The translations under genes were made by a program, and so were the position numbers. Below, one piece after another: positions 855 through 43,131 of a stretch of DNA of 64,000 nt (the first letter of the stretch is position 1; every line of letters begins with the position of its first letter). The stretch comes from Fimbriimonadaceae bacterium. Its GTDB lineage: Bacteria > Armatimonadota > Fimbriimonadia > Fimbriimonadales > Fimbriimonadaceae. Location of the stretch: NCBI GenBank assembly GCA_037190145.1, contig JBBCJU010000003.1:2170-66169 (forward strand), written 5' to 3'. The notes beneath the pieces are model-generated. The model had not been told where the DNA came from and did no database searches. It saw nothing but the letters and a program-made list of their open reading frames with translations.

Positions 855-931
855 GCTCCGGTCGTCTAGTGGTCCAGGACATCGCCCTCTCACGGCGAAG
901 ATCGCGGGTTCGACTCCCGTCCGGAGTACCA
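855..931 (+). tRNA. tRNA-Glu (anticodon CUC), CCA encoded
   Basis: Folds by hand into a cloverleaf: acceptor GCTCCGG/CCGGAGT (G1-U72 wobble), D arm GTCT-AGTGGTCCA-GGAC, anticodon arm TCGCC-CTCTCAC-GGCGA, T arm GCGGG-TTCGACT-CCCGT. Close to canonical bacterial tRNA-Glu. Confidence 0.85.
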
Positions 932-1064
932 CCACTTCTTCAGAGGCCGTTTCAGGCCATTCCCGTTTCTCTAAGCCCTTCTATTTCGGTTTTAGTTATT
1001 CTGGGAGGTGCTCACCAATCTGAATTTAGCCACTAAAGTCTCTTAATGCAAGTAAAATCCGAGA

Positions 1065-2243
1065 ATGCGTCGCGTGGCTCCAAATGACCTATATACTGCC
1101 AGCCTCTTTGACGAATTGGCGTCAGACGAAGAGTTGGAGGCCAAAACCGCTGGAAACCGCCAGCCGGAAGTCGCGGAAGATGAAGCAACTCGTGAGCAAG
1201 GCGAACAACAGATTCGTGAACGACAAAAAGTCGTTGACTACAATATCAAAGATTATCCCATCGAGGTTATCGTTTCTAAGTTTAGCGAAGGGCAAGATAG
1301 TGACGAGAACGAATTCTTCATCCCCTACTACCAACGGGAATTTACATGGGACGTAAGACGCCAGAGCCGTTTTATTGAATCTATCTTGCTTGGATTACCA
1401 ATCCCACCTTTGTTTTTAGCTGGCATTGAGAAGGAGATTAAAGAGGATGAAGGCAGACTTGAGATTGTAGATGGCTCTCAAAGGATCAGAACTCTTGAAC
1501 GGTACTTAAGAAACCAACTCGTACTCAGGAATCTTGAAAAGCTTGATCGGTTAAATGGTTTTTCCTTCTTTGACTTAGAGTTATCCCGACAGAGAAAATT
1601 CAAACGGCATCTGATTCGAGTTATTGAACTTAGCGACAAAGCGGATGAAGACACCAGGCGAGATTTGTTTGCCAGAATCAATACAGGCAGTGATGTCCTA
1701 AAACCAATTGAAATAAGAATGGGAGCCCAGTCTGGTCCGTTCTTCGATTTCCTTGATAGGATGGCAAATGATAATCTGTTTGACAAGCTAGTTCCTGTTG
1801 GTCCGCAAAAAAGAACAAGAAAAGAAGCGCAGGAGCTTTTACTTCGCTTCTTCGCATATACGGAAAATTATCTGGAATTCAAGAAGCGTGTAGATGATTT
1901 TCTGACCGACTATATTGAGAAGAAAAAGAACGTTGAAGATAATGCGAACGACGAAGAACTACTTAAAAGTGTTCTCCGATTTGTAGAGCGAGTATTTCCA
2001 CATGGCTTTAGGAAAGGTGCAAAGTTTAGGACTGTTCCTAGGGTTCGCTTTGAGGCAATCGCAGTAGGCACTGCTCTTGCCCTAACAGAACGCCCTGATC
2101 TTTCTGGTAAAGAAATTGACGTATCTGGGTGGATTGATGGTGATGAATTCAAGCTTTTAACTACAGCTGACGGGAGTAACTCTGCGCCTCGGCTCAGGGC
2201 AAGAATTGAGTTTGTTCGCAACAAGCTACTTGGAACGGTATGA
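1065..2243 (+). CDS. DUF262 (ParB-like nuclease/NTPase superfamily) protein with acidic N-terminal extension
   Basis: Has FFIPYYQREFTW and EIVDGSQRIRTL, which match the QR...W and DGQQR signature blocks of DUF262. No DUF1524 or His-Me nuclease tail recognised. Stop overlaps the next start (ATGA). Confidence 0.75.
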   Translation: MRRVAPNDLYTASLFDELASDEELEAKTAGNRQPEVAEDEATREQGEQQIRERQKVVDYNIKDYPIEVIVSKFSEGQDSDENEFFIPYYQREFTWDVRRQSRFIESILLGLPIPPLFLAGIEKEIKEDEGRLEIVDGSQRIRTLERYLRNQLVLRNLEKLDRLNGFSFFDLELSRQRKFKRHLIRVIELSDKADEDTRRDLFARINTGSDVLKPIEIRMGAQSGPFFDFLDRMANDNLFDKLVPVGPQKRTRKEAQELLLRFFAYTENYLEFKKRVDDFLTDYIEKKKNVEDNANDEELLKSVLRFVERVFPHGFRKGAKFRTVPRVRFEAIAVGTALALTERPDLSGKEIDVSGWIDGDEFKLLTTADGSNSAPRLRARIEFVRNKLLGTV

Positions 2244-2887
2244 TTTCTTTGCGCGCCGACTTCGATGCCCGTGTAGCCGAAATCAGTTCATTCATTGCAC
2301 TGGTTAAGAAGCAAGATTCGGCAATTGCACCGAGTGACCCCAATATAGAAGGGTACAAGGCTATGAAGGCTGCTACTCATCTGCTAATGTACAATCTCGT
2401 TGAATCTACAGCCACGAGTATCCATGAGCTGATTTTTGATGCGGTGTCATCATCAAAGACTACGTTTGACGACCTGATTCATCCACTGCGTAAGACCGTT
2501 TTGAGAAATGCCCAGAAGCCCAGCGTAGATAAGCTCGTTGAAAAACTGAAAATCTTGTCGATTGATTTAATTGATGCTACATTTGATCGTGAAGGAATCT
2601 TTTCTGGCAATGTAGATGCTAAGAAGCTTCGAGAGAGCTTTTTATCTCTTGGTCTTAAAGAGCCCAAGGCCACTGGGAAAAAAGCTAAGGAAGGATCAGA
2701 TTCTTTACTCAGAGTTAAAAGCAACAGGAATGACTTGGCTCATGGCAGAAAAACATTTGCGGAGATTGGACGTAATATGACACCCAACGAGCTGGAGAAA
2801 GAATTAGACTGCATCAAATCTTTTCTAGATCAATGTATCAAGATCGCAGAGGATTTCGTTTCGACCTCAGGATTTCGCACTTCATAG
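2240..2887 (+). CDS. HEPN-like protein (Rx4H motif), probable RNase effector
   Basis: 215 aa and mostly helical-looking. A single RNDLAH motif (R163-x4-H168, nt 2726-2743) lies in the C-terminal third, as in HEPN nucleases. Translationally coupled to the DUF262 gene. Confidence 0.55.
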   Translation: MISLRADFDARVAEISSFIALVKKQDSAIAPSDPNIEGYKAMKAATHLLMYNLVESTATSIHELIFDAVSSSKTTFDDLIHPLRKTVLRNAQKPSVDKLVEKLKILSIDLIDATFDREGIFSGNVDAKKLRESFLSLGLKEPKATGKKAKEGSDSLLRVKSNRNDLAHGRKTFAEIGRNMTPNELEKELDCIKSFLDQCIKIAEDFVSTSGFRTS

Positions 2888-3906
2888 CCTGATAGATGGC
2901 TCAAGATTGAATTGCCAATTGACTTCGCAAGAGAAACCGGCACTGCGTTTCCAATCAAACGCGCAAGCACTCTTGGTCGAACTTGCCCTTTCTCCTCCAC
3001 AAACTTGTACGATGAAGGAAATGATTGAATCAGCGATGCCTCTCTGATCGATAACCCACGATTTTGTTCAGGATGAATAAACCGTCCATTTCCAACTCCG
3101 AGGCAGTGAGTTGTGAGGGTCGGTGCAGGCTCATCATAAAGCATACGTCCGTATACGCTCCTATACGTTTTACCAGATGCTTTACGATGACAGGCAAGAT
3201 GAAGTTCTTCTGGCCAATCCTTCCATGACCCCCCAGGTTTAGACGCGGCAACTCGCATCAAATTTAGTGGCGACAGTTTACTGGCATAGTGGAGAGGATC
3301 AGTCTGTGAAGCAGTTCCATTTTCAATAGGTTCCAAATGAGAAATGGCCTCTCTAACGCTTACAGACTTTCCTTGAGTTCGGTGAAGTTCAAGCGGTCCG
3401 TACTGAGATGCCAATAATACCAATCTATTCCTATTCTGAGGAACGCCAAAAGCCGCACAATTTACTACATCGTACCAAACATGATATTGCTTTCTTTTCA
3501 AGAACGAAACTAGCCTAATGAAAGCTTCTGAGTTACAGGCACGGGGAACATTTTCCATCGAAACTACCTCCGGCAACGTTTCCCTAACCAGTCTCTTATA
3601 TTCTGAGATTAGGCTCCAACGCTTATCATCAGGGTCAGCTTTCTTTTTTCCCATGGAATAGGTTGAAAATGTTTGGCAGGGAGCGCATCCAACAAGAATG
3701 CGAATCCCATGGTCCCAATGACTATTAAGTATTTCCCCAGACAAATCGAAGATGTCCTGTTGAATAAATATTGCGTTATTATTTTCTTCAAATGGGAAGC
3801 GACAGGCAGGATCAATATCAAATCCTGCCTTTACCTTAATGCCAGCACTTTCAAGCCCGTGAGTAAGGCCGCCAGCACCACAAAACAGGTCAATTGCAGA
3901 TGCCAC
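2830..3906 (-). CDS. dcm: DNA (cytosine-5)-methyltransferase
   Basis: All canonical C5-MTase motifs are present: DLFCGAGGL (I), GCAPCQTFS (IV, catalytic Cys), MENVP (VI), QNRNR (VIII), SIREASLIQSFP (IX), GNAVP (X). Confidence 0.9.
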   Translation of the reverse strand: MASAIDLFCGAGGLTHGLESAGIKVKAGFDIDPACRFPFEENNNAIFIQQDIFDLSGEILNSHWDHGIRILVGCAPCQTFSTYSMGKKKADPDDKRWSLISEYKRLVRETLPEVVSMENVPRACNSEAFIRLVSFLKRKQYHVWYDVVNCAAFGVPQNRNRLVLLASQYGPLELHRTQGKSVSVREAISHLEPIENGTASQTDPLHYASKLSPLNLMRVAASKPGGSWKDWPEELHLACHRKASGKTYRSVYGRMLYDEPAPTLTTHCLGVGNGRFIHPEQNRGLSIREASLIQSFPSSYKFVEEKGQVRPRVLARLIGNAVPVSLAKSIGNSILSHLSGYEVRNPEVETKSSAILIH

Positions 3907-4324
3907 CAGCTAAGGGTACCTTGAGGCATTGGAGGAATTGCGGGTGATAAAGATAACCTATTACCTCAGAAGCAGGCTTTACCCAGCAAGCTTGCTCATG
4001 GTTGCAAGCTGAGTAGGGAACTCGTCGTTCAACTTCTTATCCACACGGAAGAATAAGCCCTGCTGCAAGCACGTGCCATCGTCGTCCATCAGCTTGAGAA
4101 CTTGGTTAGAGAGCTTACACAGCCAGTATCTGCATTTTCATGCGCAAATAGTGGGCACTTCCTTGGCTTAGTTCTAGGGGGCAAGTCGGTGCAACGGATT
4201 GAAGTAGTCTTGCCATTCGAAAAGTCGGTTACCGAAGAGGAGGACCTTTAAAGTTTCATATTGGGAATATACAAAAGATATCACCTAAGGCACCTCAGCA
4301 CATCAATACCCACGGCGGGAATAC

Positions 4325-4358
4325 TTTTAAAAGGACCACGCAGCAGGCTGGCGTGGTC
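4325..4358 (-). terminator. Candidate intrinsic terminator of the PEP-CTERM gene
   Basis: 8-bp stem GACCACGC/GCGTGGTC (4334-4341 / 4351-4358) with a 9-nt loop. On the minus strand it is followed by C-TTTT, about 10 nt after the stop codon. Confidence 0.45.
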
Positions 4359-4367
4359 AGCAAGATC

Positions 4368-5081
4368 TTAGGCTTTCTTCCGACGACGTCTTGCGAGTAG
4401 GGCAAGGCCAGCGGCTACGCCAACAAGCGTAGCGGGTTCAGGAACAGCTTGTACATTCACTTCCGTAAGCACGAAGTTGCCATTTGTGCTGTACATGCCG
4501 GGACCATTAGTTGGCAAACTAGGGTCATCTAGTACTTCAAGTCGAAGACCTGTTACATTGGAAAGGCCGAGGTTTAGGTTAACCGTGTACTTGCCCAAAA
4601 CGGGTGTACCCGACATCAAAACACTTCCATCACCAAGAATTGAGGAACTCATACTTACGGGTTGGGCGACACTAACCGGAGTAAGGACTGTCCAGTTAGC
4701 GGTTACATCTCCACCGGACTGCAAGCCATCAGCAAAGTTCGATCGATCATCCGTTGTGGCTGACCATCGAAAACGCCCTACGTTATGCCCAACAAAGGTT
4801 TGAAAGTTATGAAACATATCAATGGACAACATTGGGGAATTCAAGTCGGCCACTGTCTCGAATACTGCGGTCTGAGGACTCGTGCTATTCGTTGTTGAAT
4901 CGAAAACAGCCCACCCATTACGATTAGAATAATCCCCATCGATCATTTGTGAAGCAAGCCATGGCCCGTCAAAGGCCTGGCTAAATGTTGCCGTTGCATT
5001 TTGTAGTGCAACTTGTCCCAAGGCAAATGTTGGAATGATCCCTAACGTGATGCCTATGGATCGTGAAAATGTGATTGCCAT
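4368..5081 (-). CDS. Secreted PEP-CTERM sorting-domain protein
   Basis: N-terminal signal-like segment. C-terminus VPEPATLVGVAAGLALLARRRRKKA is the PEP motif, a TM helix and a basic tail. Confidence 0.8.
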   Translation of the reverse strand: MAITFSRSIGITLGIIPTFALGQVALQNATATFSQAFDGPWLASQMIDGDYSNRNGWAVFDSTTNSTSPQTAVFETVADLNSPMLSIDMFHNFQTFVGHNVGRFRWSATTDDRSNFADGLQSGGDVTANWTVLTPVSVAQPVSMSSSILGDGSVLMSGTPVLGKYTVNLNLGLSNVTGLRLEVLDDPSLPTNGPGMYSTNGNFVLTEVNVQAVPEPATLVGVAAGLALLARRRRKKA

Positions 5082-5276: not shown

Positions 5277-5987
5277 TTAGCACCTAGCCGACTTGCGCTT
5301 TTTGCCCACCCGTCCCATCGAATCAACCTTTCGAATATAGTCAGGAGAGAAAGGTACTTTACAAGCCGTCTTACCCATGTCCACTTTCACAAGCCCGATC
5401 TCTTCACCAGCCTCGATTGCTTCCTCTTTGAGTTCGCGAACATAGCTCCCAAGACAGATAATGAAACCATTCATCTTGTAACGCACTCGATCAGGCTGAG
5501 TATGAATTGTCTTTCTCACACGGTCTAATAGGCGTCGGAGAGAAGGAATATCCAGTTGATCATCACCCTTCACAGATACCCAGCTAGACAGCGTCCCCCA
5601 TCCTACGATAGCCTCTTTTTCACTTTCAGACTCGATCCACTCTAGTCCTAGCTCCCAGCCGTGTGGTCCATCCGCGGCAACCCAGGCAACAGCAAACTCG
5701 GCCACGGTATCACTGGTTGCTTTTTCAAGCCAGGCACGCAAATCTTCCTTCGACATCCGAGACTCATCTGCGATGAGACCAGCTAAATAGAGCGCGTCAT
5801 AGACTCCAGTGTCATAGAGATCAAGGGCAAGTTGATAGTCTTTCTTTATCCTTTTCTCATACTTCTTTAGCTCCTCAATCTTCACTCCGTAAAGCGGTCC
5901 GGTAACACCGTGGTTGCGCAAAATACGGCGGTAAACTTCTGTTCCGAGAGGTTCAATTTCGGTGAGAATCTGTTGGGCGGTCATCAT
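5277..5987 (-). CDS. DNA alkylation repair (AlkD-like HEAT repeat) family protein
   Basis: 236 aa. Helical-repeat pattern (YRRILRNHGV...YGVKIEELKK...LALDLYDTGVYDALYLAG) resembles the DNA_alkylation family. Confidence 0.5.
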   Translation of the reverse strand: MMTAQQILTEIEPLGTEVYRRILRNHGVTGPLYGVKIEELKKYEKRIKKDYQLALDLYDTGVYDALYLAGLIADESRMSKEDLRAWLEKATSDTVAEFAVAWVAADGPHGWELGLEWIESESEKEAIVGWGTLSSWVSVKGDDQLDIPSLRRLLDRVRKTIHTQPDRVRYKMNGFIICLGSYVRELKEEAIEAGEEIGLVKVDMGKTACKVPFSPDYIRKVDSMGRVGKKRKSARC

Positions 5988-37396: not shown

Positions 37397-38875
37397 CTAT
37401 GCCGCTACTCGCAAGTGTGATCCAGGCTTATGATCATCAACTGTAAACTGACTGACCAAATCTCTGAGAGATTGACTCATATGGGCAAGCTCGCTAGCAG
37501 CAGCACCCACCTCTTCGATACTTGCATTTAGTTCCTCGGCGCCAGCGGAAGACTCTTCTCCAACGGCGGCAACTTCCATAATGACTTGACTGGCACGTTG
37601 CGCATTTTCCGCCATGTTGACCGCTGCACGTAGATTCTTGGCAGCACTTTCGGCGACATCTCCCATCCCTGCCTCCACAACGTTTGCAAGTTTGCTGGCC
37701 TTGTCTGCCTGGATTGCCACTTCATCAGCAGCAGAAACAATCTGAACAAGAGACTTACCCGCTTGCTCACTACTTGTAGCACCGTTCTCTACTTCATGCG
37801 TCGTACTCTGGATGGCGGTTACAGTCTCATCAACTGTAGATCGAACGCCCGCAATAAGAGATCCTATTTCTCGTGTTGCAGAACCAGCCTGCTCGGCAAG
37901 TTTACGCACTTCTTCGGCAACTACCGCAAAACCACGACCGTGCTCTCCGGCCCGTGCAGCCTCTATTGCGGCATTGAGGGCAAGCAAGTTGGTTTGCTCG
38001 GCGATGGCTTCGATTGCTTTAACGATGTCGCCAATCTTTTGCCCAGCAAGATCCAGCTCTTGAACTATCTCAGAAGACAACGTAACGCGGGCTTTTACTC
38101 TAGCCATTGCTTGGATGGTTTCATTCACAGCGGTATTGCCTTCTTTCGCGAGTTCAGACATTTGTTGAGCAGCACGGCTAACCCGATCTATCTCTGTAGA
38201 AGCTCCCTTAAGCGCATCCGACGCCTTTGACACAATCATCTGTTGTGCTTCACTGCTCTCAGATACTTCAGCAACCTGACTATTCAGCCGGCTCATCTCC
38301 TCAGAAGCTTTAGAAGAGTTTTCGGCCAGTTTTTGACTTCCTGCGGCAATTTCATTTGCCGCTGCTCCACTTTCTTCACTCGAAGCCGCAAGCTGTTGGC
38401 TTGTACCGGCCACGCTGTCGGCGTTTTGTGATACCGATGTAATCATGTTTGACAAGCTTTCTCGCCCGCTGTTATACGCACTTACTGATGCCTGAACCTT
38501 CCCAAGCAGAAGGTTGAATGTCGTGCAAAGCTGCCCAACTTCGTCGCTGCCAGTTACTGGAACCGGTGTTGTTGCAGGTTGAACTTCATACGTAAGATCA
38601 CCTCTTGCCAAGGATTGAAGCCCAGTCGTGAGATGGTAAACACAGATGGACTCCATAGACACCAATCGGCTCTGAAGTTCTGAGAGTGGCCCAACAAGCG
38701 CTTTGCGCATCAAAACGAAGGACACAACACTGGAGCACATGGAAGCACCCGCCAACGCATATATCCAATTGTGCGCAGTTCCATTCGCGGGAACAAACAC
38801 CATGGCGAGTGATAAAATGGCACCTGTTCCAAATGCAGCAGCTAGCTTAGCTTGTATACCAAAACCTTTAGACAT
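37397..38875 (-). CDS. Methyl-accepting chemotaxis protein
   Basis: [37 protein letters not shown] is the invariant MCP signalling hairpin. N-terminal TM segments and a HAMP-like linker are present. Confidence 0.9.
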
Positions 38876-39355
38876 TTAATAAACCCCTTGACCTTTTGGT
38901 CACGCACGTTTATCAACAGTCCCAATTGCATGAACAATTAAACTGCCTATTCGGCAAAAACACCGGGTTAATCCCGATGGATAAGTATAGGCACGGAAAG
39001 CTGATTTCGTTAGGTGAGGTCAATAGTGGCTCATGAAATTCATACAAGGCCTAGTTGTTGTTGGAAGGCACAATCCTACGCGCCTTGTCAATAAACAACA
39101 ATGTTAAAAGTTTATCGTCAAATAGTTATCCAACATTGAAATGTATCGATTTTCTAAGATCCCATACATCCTGCATTGCCGTTATAATAATCATTTCACA
39201 ACAGTTGGTATTTTAGTTTTGATTTAGAGTAATGTGGTGGTTCTTATAAACCCGTGCTTTGGTTACTTTCACCAAATGGTCTGCATCCGGCAATTTAGCG
39301 TAATGGGAAATGAGTACAGCATTTCCCCTGATGAGATTGCTATGATATCAGTTAA

Positions 39356-40291
39356 GTGCCGAAGTCCCCGTTTGAGCTTCTCACCGAACGTGAGTTAGAG
39401 ATACTAAAACTTGCAGCTTCGGGTCATATGGATAAGCAGATTGCCGTTAACTTGAACATACGGCCAGGCACACTTATTACTTATTGGTCTCGCATTCGGC
39501 GTAAAATTGGCGCTTCTTCTAGAAGTGAGATTTCTGTCAAATTCATTCAGTGGAAATACGAGACTGTTTCATCTCCAGCTGATCGTTCCGACGCTACAGA
39601 AAATGCTTTCGACCATGCACCTCACAGCATTCTCAGAGTTTGCAGAAATGGGCTCATTCGATACGCAAACAAGTCATTTTTGAACCTAGTTGGCTACACA
39701 GTAGATGAAGTAGTAGGACAACCCGTAACGTTATTTCTCAAGAGCCCCAACCGAGCAATCCAAGAGCTTATTGAGTCCGTATTCCGTAATCGTGGTCGTA
39801 CTCAGACAACAATGCAGACCACTGATGGTGATAATGGAATAACGCTAAATGTCATTGCATTTCCTGAAACAGATGCAAAAGGCCATGTTACAGCAATGTG
39901 TCTAGCTTTAAATCAGGTTTCTGAGTCAGATCCACCACAACGCACATGGGATCAAATCATTGATACTGTTTACAATGCAAGCGATATACTGATAGTCTTT
40001 TCTCTCATCGGAAAAGTTATCTACATTAATAAGCTTGTCGAATCACTCTTTGCGTCTGAAGTTCCTACTTTGATGGAAATGAATCTTAGTGATTTCTTTG
40101 ATGCTTCTTCACTAGCATGCTTAACTGAAGAAGCAATTCCTAAGGCAATGTCTATCGGGTCATGGTCTGGCCAGTTACATCTTAAGGAAAAGCTTAATTC
40201 TAAAGAAATTCCATTCACATTGATTTCTCTTCGAACGACACACCACCCCGCCAAGCTCTTTGGTGCGTTTGGGTGGATTCCACGTCCTTAA
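39356..40291 (+). CDS. LuxR/GerE-type HTH protein with C-terminal PAS-like domains
   Basis: LTERELEILKLAASGHMDKQIAVNLNIRPGTLITYWSRIRRKIG is a GerE HTH, unusually at the N-terminus. The following SILRVCRNGLIRYANKSFLNLVGYTVDEVVGQP is PAS-like. GTG start. Confidence 0.7.
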   Translation: MPKSPFELLTERELEILKLAASGHMDKQIAVNLNIRPGTLITYWSRIRRKIGASSRSEISVKFIQWKYETVSSPADRSDATENAFDHAPHSILRVCRNGLIRYANKSFLNLVGYTVDEVVGQPVTLFLKSPNRAIQELIESVFRNRGRTQTTMQTTDGDNGITLNVIAFPETDAKGHVTAMCLALNQVSESDPPQRTWDQIIDTVYNASDILIVFSLIGKVIYINKLVESLFASEVPTLMEMNLSDFFDASSLACLTEEAIPKAMSIGSWSGQLHLKEKLNSKEIPFTLISLRTTHHPAKLFGAFGWIPRP

Positions 40292-40499
40292 TATACAGGT
40301 CATTGCTGTTAGTCGACGTGTACTTAAAAGTAAGGACTATTCCTTGCCCGACTAAATACGAATAATTGCACTATTGATTACGCAATCTCTTGTCACGTGC
40401 AAGTCAAATTGATGTATTCCAGTGCCGATGGTTTGTAGCCACCTCACTAATAGGAGATGGCTGCGTTAAATCGCGGCTAAATCAACTCAGCCCAATATT

Positions 40500-40535
40500 G
40501 GGTCACACGCCATGAATAATGTGTGGCCCTTTTTT
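40500..40535 (+). terminator. Rho-independent terminator with no adjacent upstream CDS
   Basis: 9-bp stem GGGTCACAC/GTGTGGCCC (one G-U pair), a 12-nt loop, then T6 (40530-40535). It lies 209 nt after the LuxR-PAS stop. Confidence 0.65.
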
Positions 40536-40574
40536 CGTTCTAGTCCACTGCCCTATGCCTAACCTGTCCAAAGG

Positions 40575-40580
40575 TATAAT
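40575..40580 (+). promoter_or_regulatory. Candidate -10 box for tRNA-Gln
   Basis: Perfect TATAAT 18 nt upstream of the mature tRNA 5' end. No convincing -35 seen. Confidence 0.3.
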
Positions 40581-40598
40581 GTTGAGTCTACGACGCGC

Positions 40599-40672
40599 TG
40601 CCCGCTCGTCTAATGGCAGGACAACAGTCTCTGAATCTGTTTATCGTGGTTCGAATCCATGGCGGGCAGCCA
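40599..40672 (+). tRNA. tRNA-Gln (anticodon CUG), CCA encoded
   Basis: Folds as TGCCCGC-TC-GTCT-AATGGCA-GGAC-A-ACAGT-CTCTGAA-TCTGT-TTAT-CGTGG-TTCGAAT-CCATG-GCGGGCA-G-CCA. The U1-A72 pair and G73 are typical bacterial tRNA-Gln identity features. Confidence 0.9.
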
Positions 40673-40738
40673 AACTCATTGAACCAGAACCCCTCTAGGG
40701 TCATCGTGTGTATTCTCACTTGTCTGAGTAAAAACAGA

Positions 40739-40792
40739 GCGGGCGGGCAATCCTAGCCGACGACCGGATATTCGCCGGGGACTGCCCGCCCG
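40739..40792 (-). terminator. Candidate terminator of the STAS-like gene
   Basis: 10-11 bp GC-rich arms GCGGGCGGGCA / TGCCCGCCCG enclose a 33-nt structured loop. On the minus strand they are followed by CTCTGTTTTTA. Confidence 0.4.
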
Positions 40793-40822
40793 TCTTCCTT
40801 CAAAGACGAACTCCTTTGTCCG

Positions 40823-41212
40823 TTAAGCTGCTCGAAGCATTGCCGTTTGTTGCCAGAAAGGCGCTTGCATGGATGGAATTTCCAGGCAGAACTGTTCTCT
40901 ACCTTCGAGAACTTGCTGCAAACGGGCTGTCGTATGACGTGCGATGTCCTCATCATCACTGGCCATCGTCACAATCTTCTCTGCACCAAATTCGAAAGCC
41001 TTATCCTTGAGGTTATCTAAGATACTTGTGGCCTCACTGTCAAGATTCTTTGCTCTCGAATGGTCAATCAATAGGTAAAAGGGGTTCGACTCAAGTGACT
41101 CAAGAACCTCTTCTAAATCTTCCGCGAATGCTCGCATCTCAAGCTTGTCTATTCTTCCTCCAAGACTTGCTTCTACAATCGCACGCTCTTCCTGAACCGT
41201 TACTAGATACAT
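40823..41212 (-). CDS. Hypothetical protein, STAS-like (anti-sigma antagonist fold?)
   Basis: 129 aa. The pattern ASLGGRIDKLEMRAFAEDLEEVL...YLLIDHSRAKNLDSEATSIL resembles a STAS domain. The assignment is weak. Confidence 0.35.
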   Translation of the reverse strand: MYLVTVQEERAIVEASLGGRIDKLEMRAFAEDLEEVLESLESNPFYLLIDHSRAKNLDSEATSILDNLKDKAFEFGAEKIVTMASDDEDIARHTTARLQQVLEGREQFCLEIPSMQAPFWQQTAMLRAA

Positions 41213-41493
41213 TCCTTATTTCGCTAGGGATAGATTCCCTACCTCCACCACCGTCTTTCCCTAACAAAGTTCTAGAAGACCTGGTAAATGCAACAAGCCC
41301 ACCATAAACCAGCACGCATGACAGCTAGTGGGTGTACCGGTAGAAGAATTACCAGCCAAATCTATTACCAGGAAGGCATATTGAATCCAAGAGTATCTAC
41401 CAAGCCAACAATTCGGTTGGCTCAAGTTAGTCTTTGTACAAAAACACCTTCACTCCAGCACCTATTGTCACAAGGACTCGCTAAACTACTTTC

Positions 41494-43131
41494 ATGATCT
41501 CGCTCATTGCGGTTGCGCTTACGACTCAAATTCACCCTCAAAGCTACAAAAATGGAGCGGTGGTGAGCGATAGCGACATCGCCAGCCGAGTGGGAGCGGC
41601 TGTTCTACGTAAGGGCGGAAATGCAGTCGATGCCGCAGTGGCGACTGGACTTGCCCTGGCCGTAACTTTTCCTGCAGCTGGAAACTTGGGAGGAGGTGGC
41701 TTTATGCTCGTGCGCATGGCAGATGGGAGGACCGTAGCGATTGACTATCGTGAGGTCGCACCAAAACTTGCGACACGCGATATGTATAAAAATCCATCTG
41801 ACTCCCTAACTGGGTATCTCGCTTCTGGAGTGCCGGGGACACCCCTTGGAATGTGGGAGGCGCATCGCAAGTTGGGGAAATTGAGGTGGAAAGATGTGGT
41901 GGAACCCGCGGTAAAGCTTGCACGCGATGGGTTCGCAATGCCTGCCGGACTGGCCAGAGACTTACAAAGTGAAGCCCCAAAGTTCCGTAAGTTCCCTGCT
42001 TCTTGGGCTCAATTCTGCCGAGACGGAAAGTTTTATCAGACCGGAGAAATATTCAGACAACCTGATTTAGCCAGAACGCTTACCCTCCTACGTGATCAAG
42101 GTCCAAAAGGGTTTTATGAGGGAGAAACTGCGCAGAAGTTTGACCATGCAATGCGGCAAAATGGCGGGCTGATAAGCGCTGAAGACCTTAGCAGCTACCG
42201 AACGGTAAACCGAGAACCTCTCATGGGTGATTTCCGAGGATATCAAGTTCTCACCATGCCCCCACCGAGTTCGGGAGGCATTGCCCTGCTTCAGATGCTG
42301 GGGATGCTGAAAAACGATAACCTCAATCAAACCGGCTATGGATCTAGTACGACCCTCCATTTGATGGTTGAAGCGATGAAGAGAGCCTTTGCGGATCGCT
42401 CTCTGCATCTAGGAGACCCTGCCTTTGTAAAGATTCCTGTGAGTCAGTTGCTTGACCCTAAGTACATCAACGAGTTGCGTCATTCCATTTCCGACCAAGC
42501 AACGCCCTCGGCAAGCATCAAAGGACTAGATCCCGGAGTAAGCGGAATGCATACAACTCACTACTCGGTTGTAGATAAGGACGGCAATGCGGTTTCCAAT
42601 ACTTACACCCTCAATACTAGCTACGGCAGTAGCGTGGTCATTCCTGGCACTGGCGTACTGATGAACAACGAAATGGATGACTTCACCACCCAGCCAGGAA
42701 AACCCAATGTCTTTGGTTTAATACAAAGCGAAAAAAACATAGTGGAACCCGGCAAGCGTCCACTAAGCTCTATGACGCCGACGATTTTGGTAAAGGACGG
42801 AAAGGTTGCTTTTGTGATTGGCAGTCCGGGCGGTCCCACTATTATCAACACTGTTTTCCAGACTGTCCTCAATACTGTCGAGTTTAGGATGAATATTCAA
42901 ATGGCCGTAGCCGCCCCGCGATTCCATCATCAATGGATGCCGGATGAGATCCGTTGGGAGCCCTATGGACTATCTGCCGATGTTAGGAAAGGACTTGAGG
43001 CAAGAGGCCACAAACTCGCCGTATCTGGAATGCGGATGGGCAGTTGTCACAGTATTCAGGTTGATGCGCAGGGAAACAAGCTCACCGGCATAGACCCACG
43101 CATTTCTACATCTGGCGCAGCCGGTTGGTAG
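41494..43131 (+). CDS. ggt: Gamma-glutamyltranspeptidase
   Basis: TTHYSVVDKDGNAVS (autocatalytic Thr), GSPGGPTII and PRFHHQW blocks. 545 aa. Confidence 0.95.
   Translation: MISLIAVALTTQIHPQSYKNGAVVSDSDIASRVGAAVLRKGGNAVDAAVATGLALAVTFPAAGNLGGGGFMLVRMADGRTVAIDYREVAPKLATRDMYKNPSDSLTGYLASGVPGTPLGMWEAHRKLGKLRWKDVVEPAVKLARDGFAMPAGLARDLQSEAPKFRKFPASWAQFCRDGKFYQTGEIFRQPDLARTLTLLRDQGPKGFYEGETAQKFDHAMRQNGGLISAEDLSSYRTVNREPLMGDFRGYQVLTMPPPSSGGIALLQMLGMLKNDNLNQTGYGSSTTLHLMVEAMKRAFADRSLHLGDPAFVKIPVSQLLDPKYINELRHSISDQATPSASIKGLDPGVSGMHTTHYSVVDKDGNAVSNTYTLNTSYGSSVVIPGTGVLMNNEMDDFTTQPGKPNVFGLIQSEKNIVEPGKRPLSSMTPTILVKDGKVAFVIGSPGGPTIINTVFQTVLNTVEFRMNIQMAVAAPRFHHQWMPDEIRWEPYGLSADVRKGLEARGHKLAVSGMRMGSCHSIQVDAQGNKLTGIDPRISTSGAAGW

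Follow-up and report, generated by a model that had tools for sequence, protein, structure and literature searches.

A mobile three-gene cassette of DUF262, HEPN and C5-methyltransferase proteins as a candidate restriction-modification-like defence system with a predicted RNase effector

A 64,000-nucleotide stretch of the genome of a Fimbriimonadaceae bacterium (contig JBBCJU010000003.1 of assembly GCA_037190145.1, positions 2,170 to 66,169), hereafter the window, contains three adjacent genes that encode a protein with a DUF262/ParB-like nucleoside triphosphatase (NTPase) domain, a HEPN-family protein, and a C5 cytosine DNA methyltransferase (MTase). The three genes are one cassette, which is strictly linked across phyla and the members of which co-evolve. 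We give about even weight to the reading that the three genes make up a horizontally mobile defence cassette resembling a restriction-modification (R-M) system, the attacking arm of which consists of a sensor and an RNase instead of a DNA endonuclease. The cassette probably protects bacteria against phages. Its type has already been described computationally and is partly validated, and it is not a new system. The window copy is ordinary: one more intact instance, from an uncultured bacterium, in an ordinary chromosomal neighbourhood. The features of the cassette in the window are as follows.

1065..2243, + strand: DUF262/ParB-like NTPase gene, 392 amino acids (aa), from open reading frame (ORF) and Pfam
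1332..1349, + strand: DUF262 motif I, QREFTW (QRxxxW), aa 90-95; Q90, R91 and W95 are invariant in an alignment of 26 homologues
1470..1484, + strand: DUF262 motif II, DGSQR (DGxQR), aa 136-140, the nucleotide-binding centre; D136, G137, Q139 and R140 are invariant in the same alignment
1668..1682, + strand: DUF262 motif III, FARIN (FxxxN), aa 202-206; F202 and N206 are invariant in the same alignment
2240..2243, + strand: ATGA, overlap of the DUF262 stop and HEPN start codons, within GGTATGATTT at 2237-2246
2240..2887, + strand: HEPN gene of the MAE_28990 family, 215 aa, from ORF and Pfam
2726..2743, + strand: HEPN catalytic motif RNDLAH (Rx4H; R163 and H168), aa 163-168, the sole Rx4H in the protein
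2830..2887, no strand assigned: 58-bp overlap of the convergent 3' ends of the HEPN and MTase genes, from ORF coordinates
2830..3906, - strand: C5 cytosine DNA methyltransferase gene, 358 aa, GTG start, from ORF and Pfam
3673-3690, - strand: MTase motif IV, GCAPCQ, from the motif check

All three genes are intact. An earlier note, made from the letters of this DNA, had described a tRNA-Glu gene followed by the DUF262 and HEPN genes, their ATGA overlap, and a convergent, intact C5-MTase gene, and each of these elements lies where the note had placed it. The motifs QREFTW and DGSQR and the single Rx4H motif with R163 and H168 were also given exactly. The ATGA overlap implies a putative translational coupling of the DUF262 and HEPN proteins. 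Of 76 related loci, 38 have this 4-nt overlap as well, and the spacing in most of the remainder is -1 to +3 nt. The 3' ends of the HEPN and MTase genes overlap in 40 of the 50 related loci in which the two are convergent.

The DUF262 protein matches the Pfam family GmrSD_N (PF03235) with an E-value of 2.6e-25, and the Pfam matches of all three cassette proteins are well above the curated cut-offs, which supports the DUF262, HEPN, and C5-MTase assignments of the earlier note. The DUF262 domain is N-terminal (approximately aa 57-190), and is followed by an all-helical C-terminal domain (approximately aa 195-390). The AlphaFold2 model of the protein, with a predicted local distance difference test score (pLDDT) of 82, lacks beta-strands past residue 189. 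The earlier note had seen no DUF1524, and indeed the protein has no Pfam match to this nuclease domain, and its modeled C-terminal half contains no beta-strand and yielded no nuclease fold. Foldseek comparison of the model with the PDB returned BrxU (7p9k_A) as the top match with a probability of 1.0, followed by the CTPase domains of ParB and Noc, and a sequence profile search of the PDB found only a weak match, to an 818-aa DUF262 protein. Among the PADLOC models, the protein matches NsnA (3.7e-52) and PD-T4-2_A (5.1e-30), and weakly REase_II PDLC03418 (7.2e-5; relatives reach 5.8e-13). A C-terminal domain of this kind, made up of helices, was named ParBDB in NsnA and is considered DNA-binding by Li et al. 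(PMC12065111). The DUF262 protein is a predicted DNA sensor.

Residues 1-55 of the DUF262 protein (window 1065-1230) form an acidic N-terminal extension that is mostly modeled with low confidence. The pLDDT is below 50 at residues 1-16 and 29-35, and the means of ten-residue blocks stay below 55 up to residue 40. The closest relatives (392-396 aa) alone keep the length of the extension; homologues mostly have approximately 362 aa and align from approximately residue 30-55.

The HEPN protein belongs to the family HEPN_MAE_28990 (PF18737; E 1.8e-20, 74.5 bits against a cut-off of 26.8), with a second Pfam match to HEPN_RiboL-PSP (PF18735; E 8.4e-13). Residues R163, N164, L166, A167, H168, and G169 are invariant across 37 HEPN homologues, and the family has, beside RNxLAHG, an invariant YNLVE motif. 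The AlphaFold2 model is all-helical, with a pLDDT of 92.8. A search of PDB sequences with the HEPN-family profile gave no significant match and thus no relative with a solved structure, and the PADLOC model PD-T4-2_B does not match the protein at E<=1. The HEPN protein is a predicted RNase effector. HEPN chemistry is metal-independent and requires a 2'-OH group, which makes DNA an unlikely substrate, and therefore an RNA-targeting output is favoured.

The MTase matches Pfam DNA_methylase (PF00145; E 8.3e-51) and TIGR00675 (9e-36), and the PADLOC models MTase_II (4.2e-85) and, over its full length, DrmMII PDLC02651 (6.1e-80). The enzyme has motifs I, IV, VI, VIII, IX, and X, none of which varies among 10 orthologues, and the variable region (aa 200-290) is conserved as strongly as the catalytic motifs. 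The catalytic cysteine is Cys77, in the PCQ of motif IV. The protein is predicted to be a self-marking enzyme. The similarity to DrmMII does not point to a single methylation motif, as the characterised DrmMII enzymes disagree with each other (MTCGAK versus CCWGG).

The linkage of the three genes was assessed in 80 loci from one-genome-per-species contigs that were collected with DUF262 alone as bait, with the neighbours scored by purpose-built hidden Markov models. The HEPN gene is located directly 3' of the DUF262 gene in 78 of the 80 loci. A C5-MTase gene is adjacent in 74, which are all of the 74 loci that could be assessed on both sides; each of the six MTase-less loci has a contig end beside the module. 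The co-conservation that the earlier note had proposed to look for is therefore found across phyla, namely in Cyanobacteria, Proteobacteria, Planctomycetes, Verrucomicrobia, Acidobacteria, Bacteroidetes, and Armatimonadota. At least 557 relatives were confirmed in a scan of 185,579 species genomes, and the best named relative is from a Chthonomonas metagenome-assembled genome, at 71% identity. Sixty-five of the 74 adjacent MTases are close orthologues of the window enzyme (phmmer E<1e-80), encoded convergently downstream in 53 loci (one of them without a HEPN gene) and co-directionally upstream in 12. Where the MTase is replaced, the substitute is another C5-MTase in all nine loci. Pairwise protein identities in the 65 triads are correlated, with Mantel r of 0.93 for DUF262-MTase, 0.85 for DUF262-HEPN, and 0.84 for HEPN-MTase (p=0.001 each). 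Decay of the cassette is asymmetric: the DUF262 or HEPN gene is broken next to an intact MTase gene in five loci, and the reverse occurs in one. A Vsr gene accompanies the triad in 9 of the 80 loci. Vsr repairs mismatches that arise by deamination of 5-methylcytosine (5mC), and because it is found alongside the triads at times, its presence implies that MTases of this family would truly methylate host DNA.

Decay or rearrangement variants were seen at loci L011, L052, L083, and L055, with an intact MTase in all four. L011 (8265-9745) has three tandem HEPN-like ORFs of 140-185 aa, L052 (8095-8201) is without a HEPN gene, and the DUF262 gene is split in L083 and L055.

The position of the DUF262 and HEPN pair relative to the MTase is indicated by a second set of 160 loci (80 metagenome and 80 viral, L094-L253), fetched with the MTase as bait, in which the orthologues have 45-55% identity. 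The partner of the MTase is DUF262 with HEPN in 74 of these loci, a GHKL protein of 540-760 aa with a HATPase_c_3 domain that matches the PADLOC model REase_II at 1e-96 in 42, and the DISARM SNF2 helicase DrmD/DrmA, with bit scores above 1,500, in 23. The partner classes are nearly mutually exclusive, as one locus alone combines two of them, and Vsr is seen at times with each of the three. This alternation of partners, together with Vsr, the conserved variable region of the MTase, and the asymmetric decay, assigns DUF262 and HEPN to the 'restriction' slot of a system based on modification. The proposal of the earlier note that HEPN takes the effector slot of a module carrying its own modification enzyme gains strength from the alternation of DUF262 and HEPN with the GHKL restriction endonuclease and DrmD. 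Judged from its gene neighbourhoods, the MTase family resembles a portable module for self-marking.

The three genes travel together as one cassette, since the triads of relatives at 81% and 71% identity are located between different flanking genes. At the DNA level, the entire cassette has a counterpart in seven complete Escherichia coli genomes, and the MTase segment in a further 93. The three E. coli loci that were opened, L086 (6014-8914), L089 (3020-5896), and L090 (5923-8819), all contain full triads, and one of them was drawn from the 'MTase-only' group, yet has the full triad. In all three, the triad is flanked by gpQ, the portal gene, and gpA, the replication endonuclease gene, of a P2-like prophage, a position that is the P2 defence hotspot according to Rousset et al. 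2022 (PMC9122126). At least three diverged triad variants occupy the gpQ-gpA hotspot of P2-like prophages, and the L089 proteins are those in Table S5A of that study. A hotspot copy from E. coli is represented by the protein accessions WP_000351260, WP_000373633, and WP_001697730. Homologues of DUF262 are also found in phages (Peduovirus P24B2 and phages of Moraxella), and Roseomonas (49% identity) and Phaeobacter (35% identity) have plasmids with full triads.

The Roseomonas mucosa plasmid locus L254 (1-3880) also contains a DEAD/DEAH-box helicase gene of more than 1,290 aa, cut by the locus edge, which runs in the same direction as the DUF262 gene, stops 46 bp short of it, and could be an additional component in some variants. 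The E. coli IncF plasmid NZ_CP137740.1 (locus L087, 3965-5665) encodes a DUF262 protein and a MAE_28990 HEPN protein at 44% identity, and no C5-MTase was detected at the locus. The pair is flanked downstream by IS66 and upstream by an unannotated, chimeric-looking ORF of 802 aa, one end of which resembles a transposase by eye. Loss of the MTase from L087 is possible, as is self-sufficiency of the pair.

From these observations and the precedents below, we infer a combination of methylation gating and RNA degradation. The C5-MTase would methylate a fixed motif in the host DNA as a self mark. The DUF262 protein, with its ParB-like NTPase and helical DNA-binding domains, would bind DNA and read the cytosine-methylation state of that motif. 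Incoming unmarked DNA would drive an NTP-dependent change in the DUF262 protein, and this would release or activate the translationally coupled HEPN protein, a dimer of which would form the Rx4H active site and cleave tRNA or mRNA. The cleavage would halt phage gene expression or arrest the infected cell in an abortive infection. Host viability may not absolutely require the methylation, which may instead be an off-switch. Somewhat short of even confidence, we tentatively propose a restriction arm that works without cutting DNA, in which the NTPase reads 5mC and unmarked DNA turns on the HEPN RNase, with the corollary that the MTase is a self-mark module for at least three unrelated effectors (DUF262-HEPN, the GHKL restriction endonuclease, and DISARM). 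A precedent is PD-T4-2, which consists of DUF262 and HEPN proteins and blocks T4 (PMC9519451). The DUF262 domain is an NTPase sensor in GmrSD, BrxU, and SspE (PMC12065111, PMC10952713), and in DARNA (PD-T7-3) a HEPN effector cleaves tRNA upon DNA sensing (bioRxiv 10.64898/2026.02.22.705581).

Several points weigh against this mechanism. The characterised DUF262 sensors GmrSD, BrxU, and SspE detect modified, not unmodified, DNA. PD-T4-2, cloned on 1.8 kb, works without an MTase (PMC9519451), and the plasmid loci L087 and L088 are DUF262 and HEPN pairs without a linked MTase. Class 1 DISARM, which has the DrmMII type of enzyme, is not autoimmune after deletion of its methylases, and DrmD adjoins orthologues of the MTase in 23 loci; therefore, the MTase may be dispensable for viability. 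At loci with a swapped MTase, the C-terminal part of the DUF262 protein shows additional divergence, of approximately 1.3-2 standard deviations, in three of eight cases and none in the rest, and the Mantel correlations could partly originate from a common organismal phylogeny. The best Foldseek match of the HEPN model in the PDB has an E-value of only 0.38, and HEPN toxins reach a TMt of 0.44. The literature searched, including under other names, contained no experiment on the MTase-linked triad, no paper in it joined DUF262, a cytosine methyltransferase, and a phage, and MAE_28990 was named in a single paper.

Some of the same evidence would fit a system of the Type IV kind, in which the DUF262 protein senses modified cytosines in phage DNA (5-hydroxymethylcytosine, its glucosylated form, or foreign 5mC patterns) and triggers HEPN, and the MTase has another job such as shielding the mobile element from host restriction. 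The top fold match, BrxU, is a Type IV enzyme, and Rousset et al. filed a Vibrio locus with DUF262 and HEPN_MAE_28990 as 'Type-IV restriction' (PMC9122126). PD-T4-2 protects against T4 in the absence of an MTase, systems selected with T4 generally also act against T2 and T6, and MTase-less pairs exist. However, a sensor of cytosine modification beside an active C5-MTase risks attacking its own host, and the MTase is adjacent in every assessable locus. Its tight co-evolution with the DUF262 protein (r=0.93), its conserved variable region, and its alternation between partners for which self depends on modification (the GHKL restriction endonuclease and DISARM) point to functional coupling rather than hitch-hiking, and we consider this alternative unlikely. 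Alternatively, the DUF262 protein might itself be a DNase or nickase acting on unmethylated DNA, with HEPN as a second-line abortive-infection RNase or a regulator. In the lines that Anantharaman et al. 2013 (PMC3710099) devote to this family, the partner is termed a 'ParB nuclease'; the DUF262 protein and its relatives have the REase_II matches given above, and convergent M and R genes with overlapping 3' ends resemble those of many Type II systems. A DNA-cutting R-M system nevertheless appears quite improbable, given that every characterised DUF262 domain is an NTPase or sensor and cleavage is performed by a fused DUF1524 (PMC10952713, PMC12065111), that the invariant residues belong to NTP-binding motifs and no nuclease fold was detected in the C-terminal half, and that an invariant Rx4H motif is unexpected in a mere accessory protein.

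The cassette could also be a selfish addiction module, in which a HEPN toxin is restrained by the DUF262 protein, by methylation, or by both, and kills after segregational loss, with defence as a by-product. It rides on P2 prophages and plasmids, the L088 pair adjoins the toxin-antitoxin systems ccdAB and pemIK, the asymmetric decay spares the MTase, and HEPN proteins are named as common toxins of toxin-antitoxin systems by Anantharaman et al. (PMC3710099). Yet the E. coli copies are located in the P2 gpA-gpQ hotspot, the tested cargo of which is mostly anti-phage (PMC9122126), PD-T4-2 protects in its native strain (PMC9519451), and the window copy is chromosomal and not accompanied by mobility genes. 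Hence we see only a slight chance that addiction is the primary role.

The earlier note overrated the novelty of the triad. A HEPN operon of the MAE_28990 family with ParB and DNA-methylase genes is given in one line, from computational analysis only, by Anantharaman et al. 2013 (Biol Direct 8:15; PMC3710099). As far as that line goes, the HEPN family, the Rx4-6H motif, the ParB/DUF262 neighbour, and the DNA-methylase neighbour are all found in the window, with no substantive difference; that line does not mention that the methylase is of the C5 type or that other effector modules share it. Rousset et al. 2022 tabulated the triad as P2-hotspot cargo (PMC9122126 Table S5A), and their tables of tested systems have no DUF262 entry. 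The two-gene relative PD-T4-2 (Vassallo et al. 2022, Nat Microbiol), from E. coli ECOR65, is likewise an operon of DUF262 and HEPN genes, with anti-T4 activity both in the native strain and when cloned (PMC9519451). Its model PD-T4-2_A (PDLC04027) matches residues 87-351 of the window DUF262 protein, with a lower score than NsnA. PF18735, assigned to PD-T4-2 in a review (PMC10952713), gives the second Pfam match of the window HEPN protein, but the PD-T4-2_B model gives none. The two genes span 1,540 bp in PD-T4-2 and 1,823 bp in the window, and the MTase is present only in the latter. PD-T4-2 lies at 338334-339873 of QOYX01000002 and consists of RCO39066.1 and an unannotated partner. Lacking a match to PD-T4-2_B and having a linked MTase, the cassette was not formally assigned to PD-T4-2.

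The top PADLOC match of the DUF262 protein is to NsnA of the Menshen system NsnABC (Millman et al. 2022; Li et al. 2025, PMC12065111), which also combines DUF262 with the helical ParBDB; window residues 33-336 align with positions 22-322 of the 385 in the model. The logic proposed for Menshen is alike, with a DUF262 sensor and an RNase-type effector. However, the NsnB ABC-ATPase and the NsnC inPIN-nuclease are absent from the locus, where HEPN is encoded directly downstream and the C5-MTase is linked instead, and membership in Menshen was rejected. GmrSD, BrxU, and SspE have in common with the window protein the DUF262 NTPase domain with QRxxxW, DGxQR, and FxxxN, but their models are approximately 560-800 aa long and include a DUF1524 His-Me nuclease, whereas the 392-aa window protein has no DUF1524 by Pfam, AlphaFold2, or Foldseek, which rules out a GmrSD-type Type IV enzyme. 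The effector in the window is a separate HEPN protein, and the linked modification is 5-methylcytosine from a single MTase. For the coupling of a DUF262 sensor with a module that modifies host DNA (SspABCD), SspE offers a precedent. Set against Type II R-M systems, the window has a putative DNA methyltransferase with all six conserved C5-MTase motifs, and no cognate DNA endonuclease was recognised. DISARM and the Type II R-M systems with a GHKL restriction endonuclease use the same C5-MTase family, with methylation as the self mark, but their effector modules are entirely different, and DrmA, DrmB, DrmC, DrmD, and the GHKL protein are absent from the window.

In the window, the cassette is located close to a tRNA gene and is followed by two genes on the - strand.

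855..931, + strand: tRNA-Glu(CTC), identified by ARAGORN, a landmark in the flank and outside the system
4368-5081, - strand: gene for a PEP-CTERM sorting-signal protein, directly beyond the MTase gene
5277-5987, - strand: gene for an AlkD-like DNA alkylation repair protein, beyond the PEP-CTERM gene

The DUF262 gene starts 134 nt after the end of the tRNA-Glu gene, a proximity to which the earlier note had drawn attention. It is incidental, as a tRNA gene is found within 7 kb in only 6 of 51 related loci. A search for signs of integration targeted to the tRNA found none: no att-like repeat of the tRNA-Glu 3' end lies downstream, no integrase is present among the ORFs of the window, and the tRNA adjacency is not conserved in relatives. 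A search of strains having the flanking DUF218 gene found no empty site. The cassette has a GC content of 44.0%, compared with 48.8% for the window, and ranks within the lowest 0.8% of windows of equal size; the GC counts that the earlier note had made by hand for three 60-nt lines (26/60, 21/60, and 25/60) are exact. No Vsr, GHKL-type restriction endonuclease, DrmD/DrmA-like sequence, or phage gpA was found across the 64-kb window, which bears out the statement of the note that no recognisable restriction endonuclease, vsr, or integrase accompanies the cassette. A defence island was considered and rejected: the neighbours encode DUF218, PEP-CTERM, AlkD-like, PhnB-like, DinB, and MscL proteins. 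Since these flanks are housekeeping genes, the cassette is a solitary insert, not part of a defence island. The 460-bp gap between the MTase start and the PEP-CTERM gene (3907-4367) contains no ORFs. A second stretch, at approximately 38600-41700 around tRNA-Gln (40599-40672), has a GC content as low as that of the cassette and contains genes for a methyl-accepting chemotaxis protein, a LuxR-PAS regulator, a 129-aa ORF without a Pfam match, and gamma-glutamyltranspeptidase; no defence-related genes were seen in it, and the stretch is ordinary.

The interest of the finding lies in the class rather than in the window copy. The MTase-linked DUF262-HEPN cassette is common and mobile, and is carried by P2 prophages of E. 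coli, by other phages, and by plasmids. If the proposed mechanism is true, DNA methylation can gate an immune response based on an RNase, and DUF262 sensors would be able to respond to a missing mark and not only to one that is there. Several defence systems would then draw on one MTase family as an exchangeable module for self-marking.

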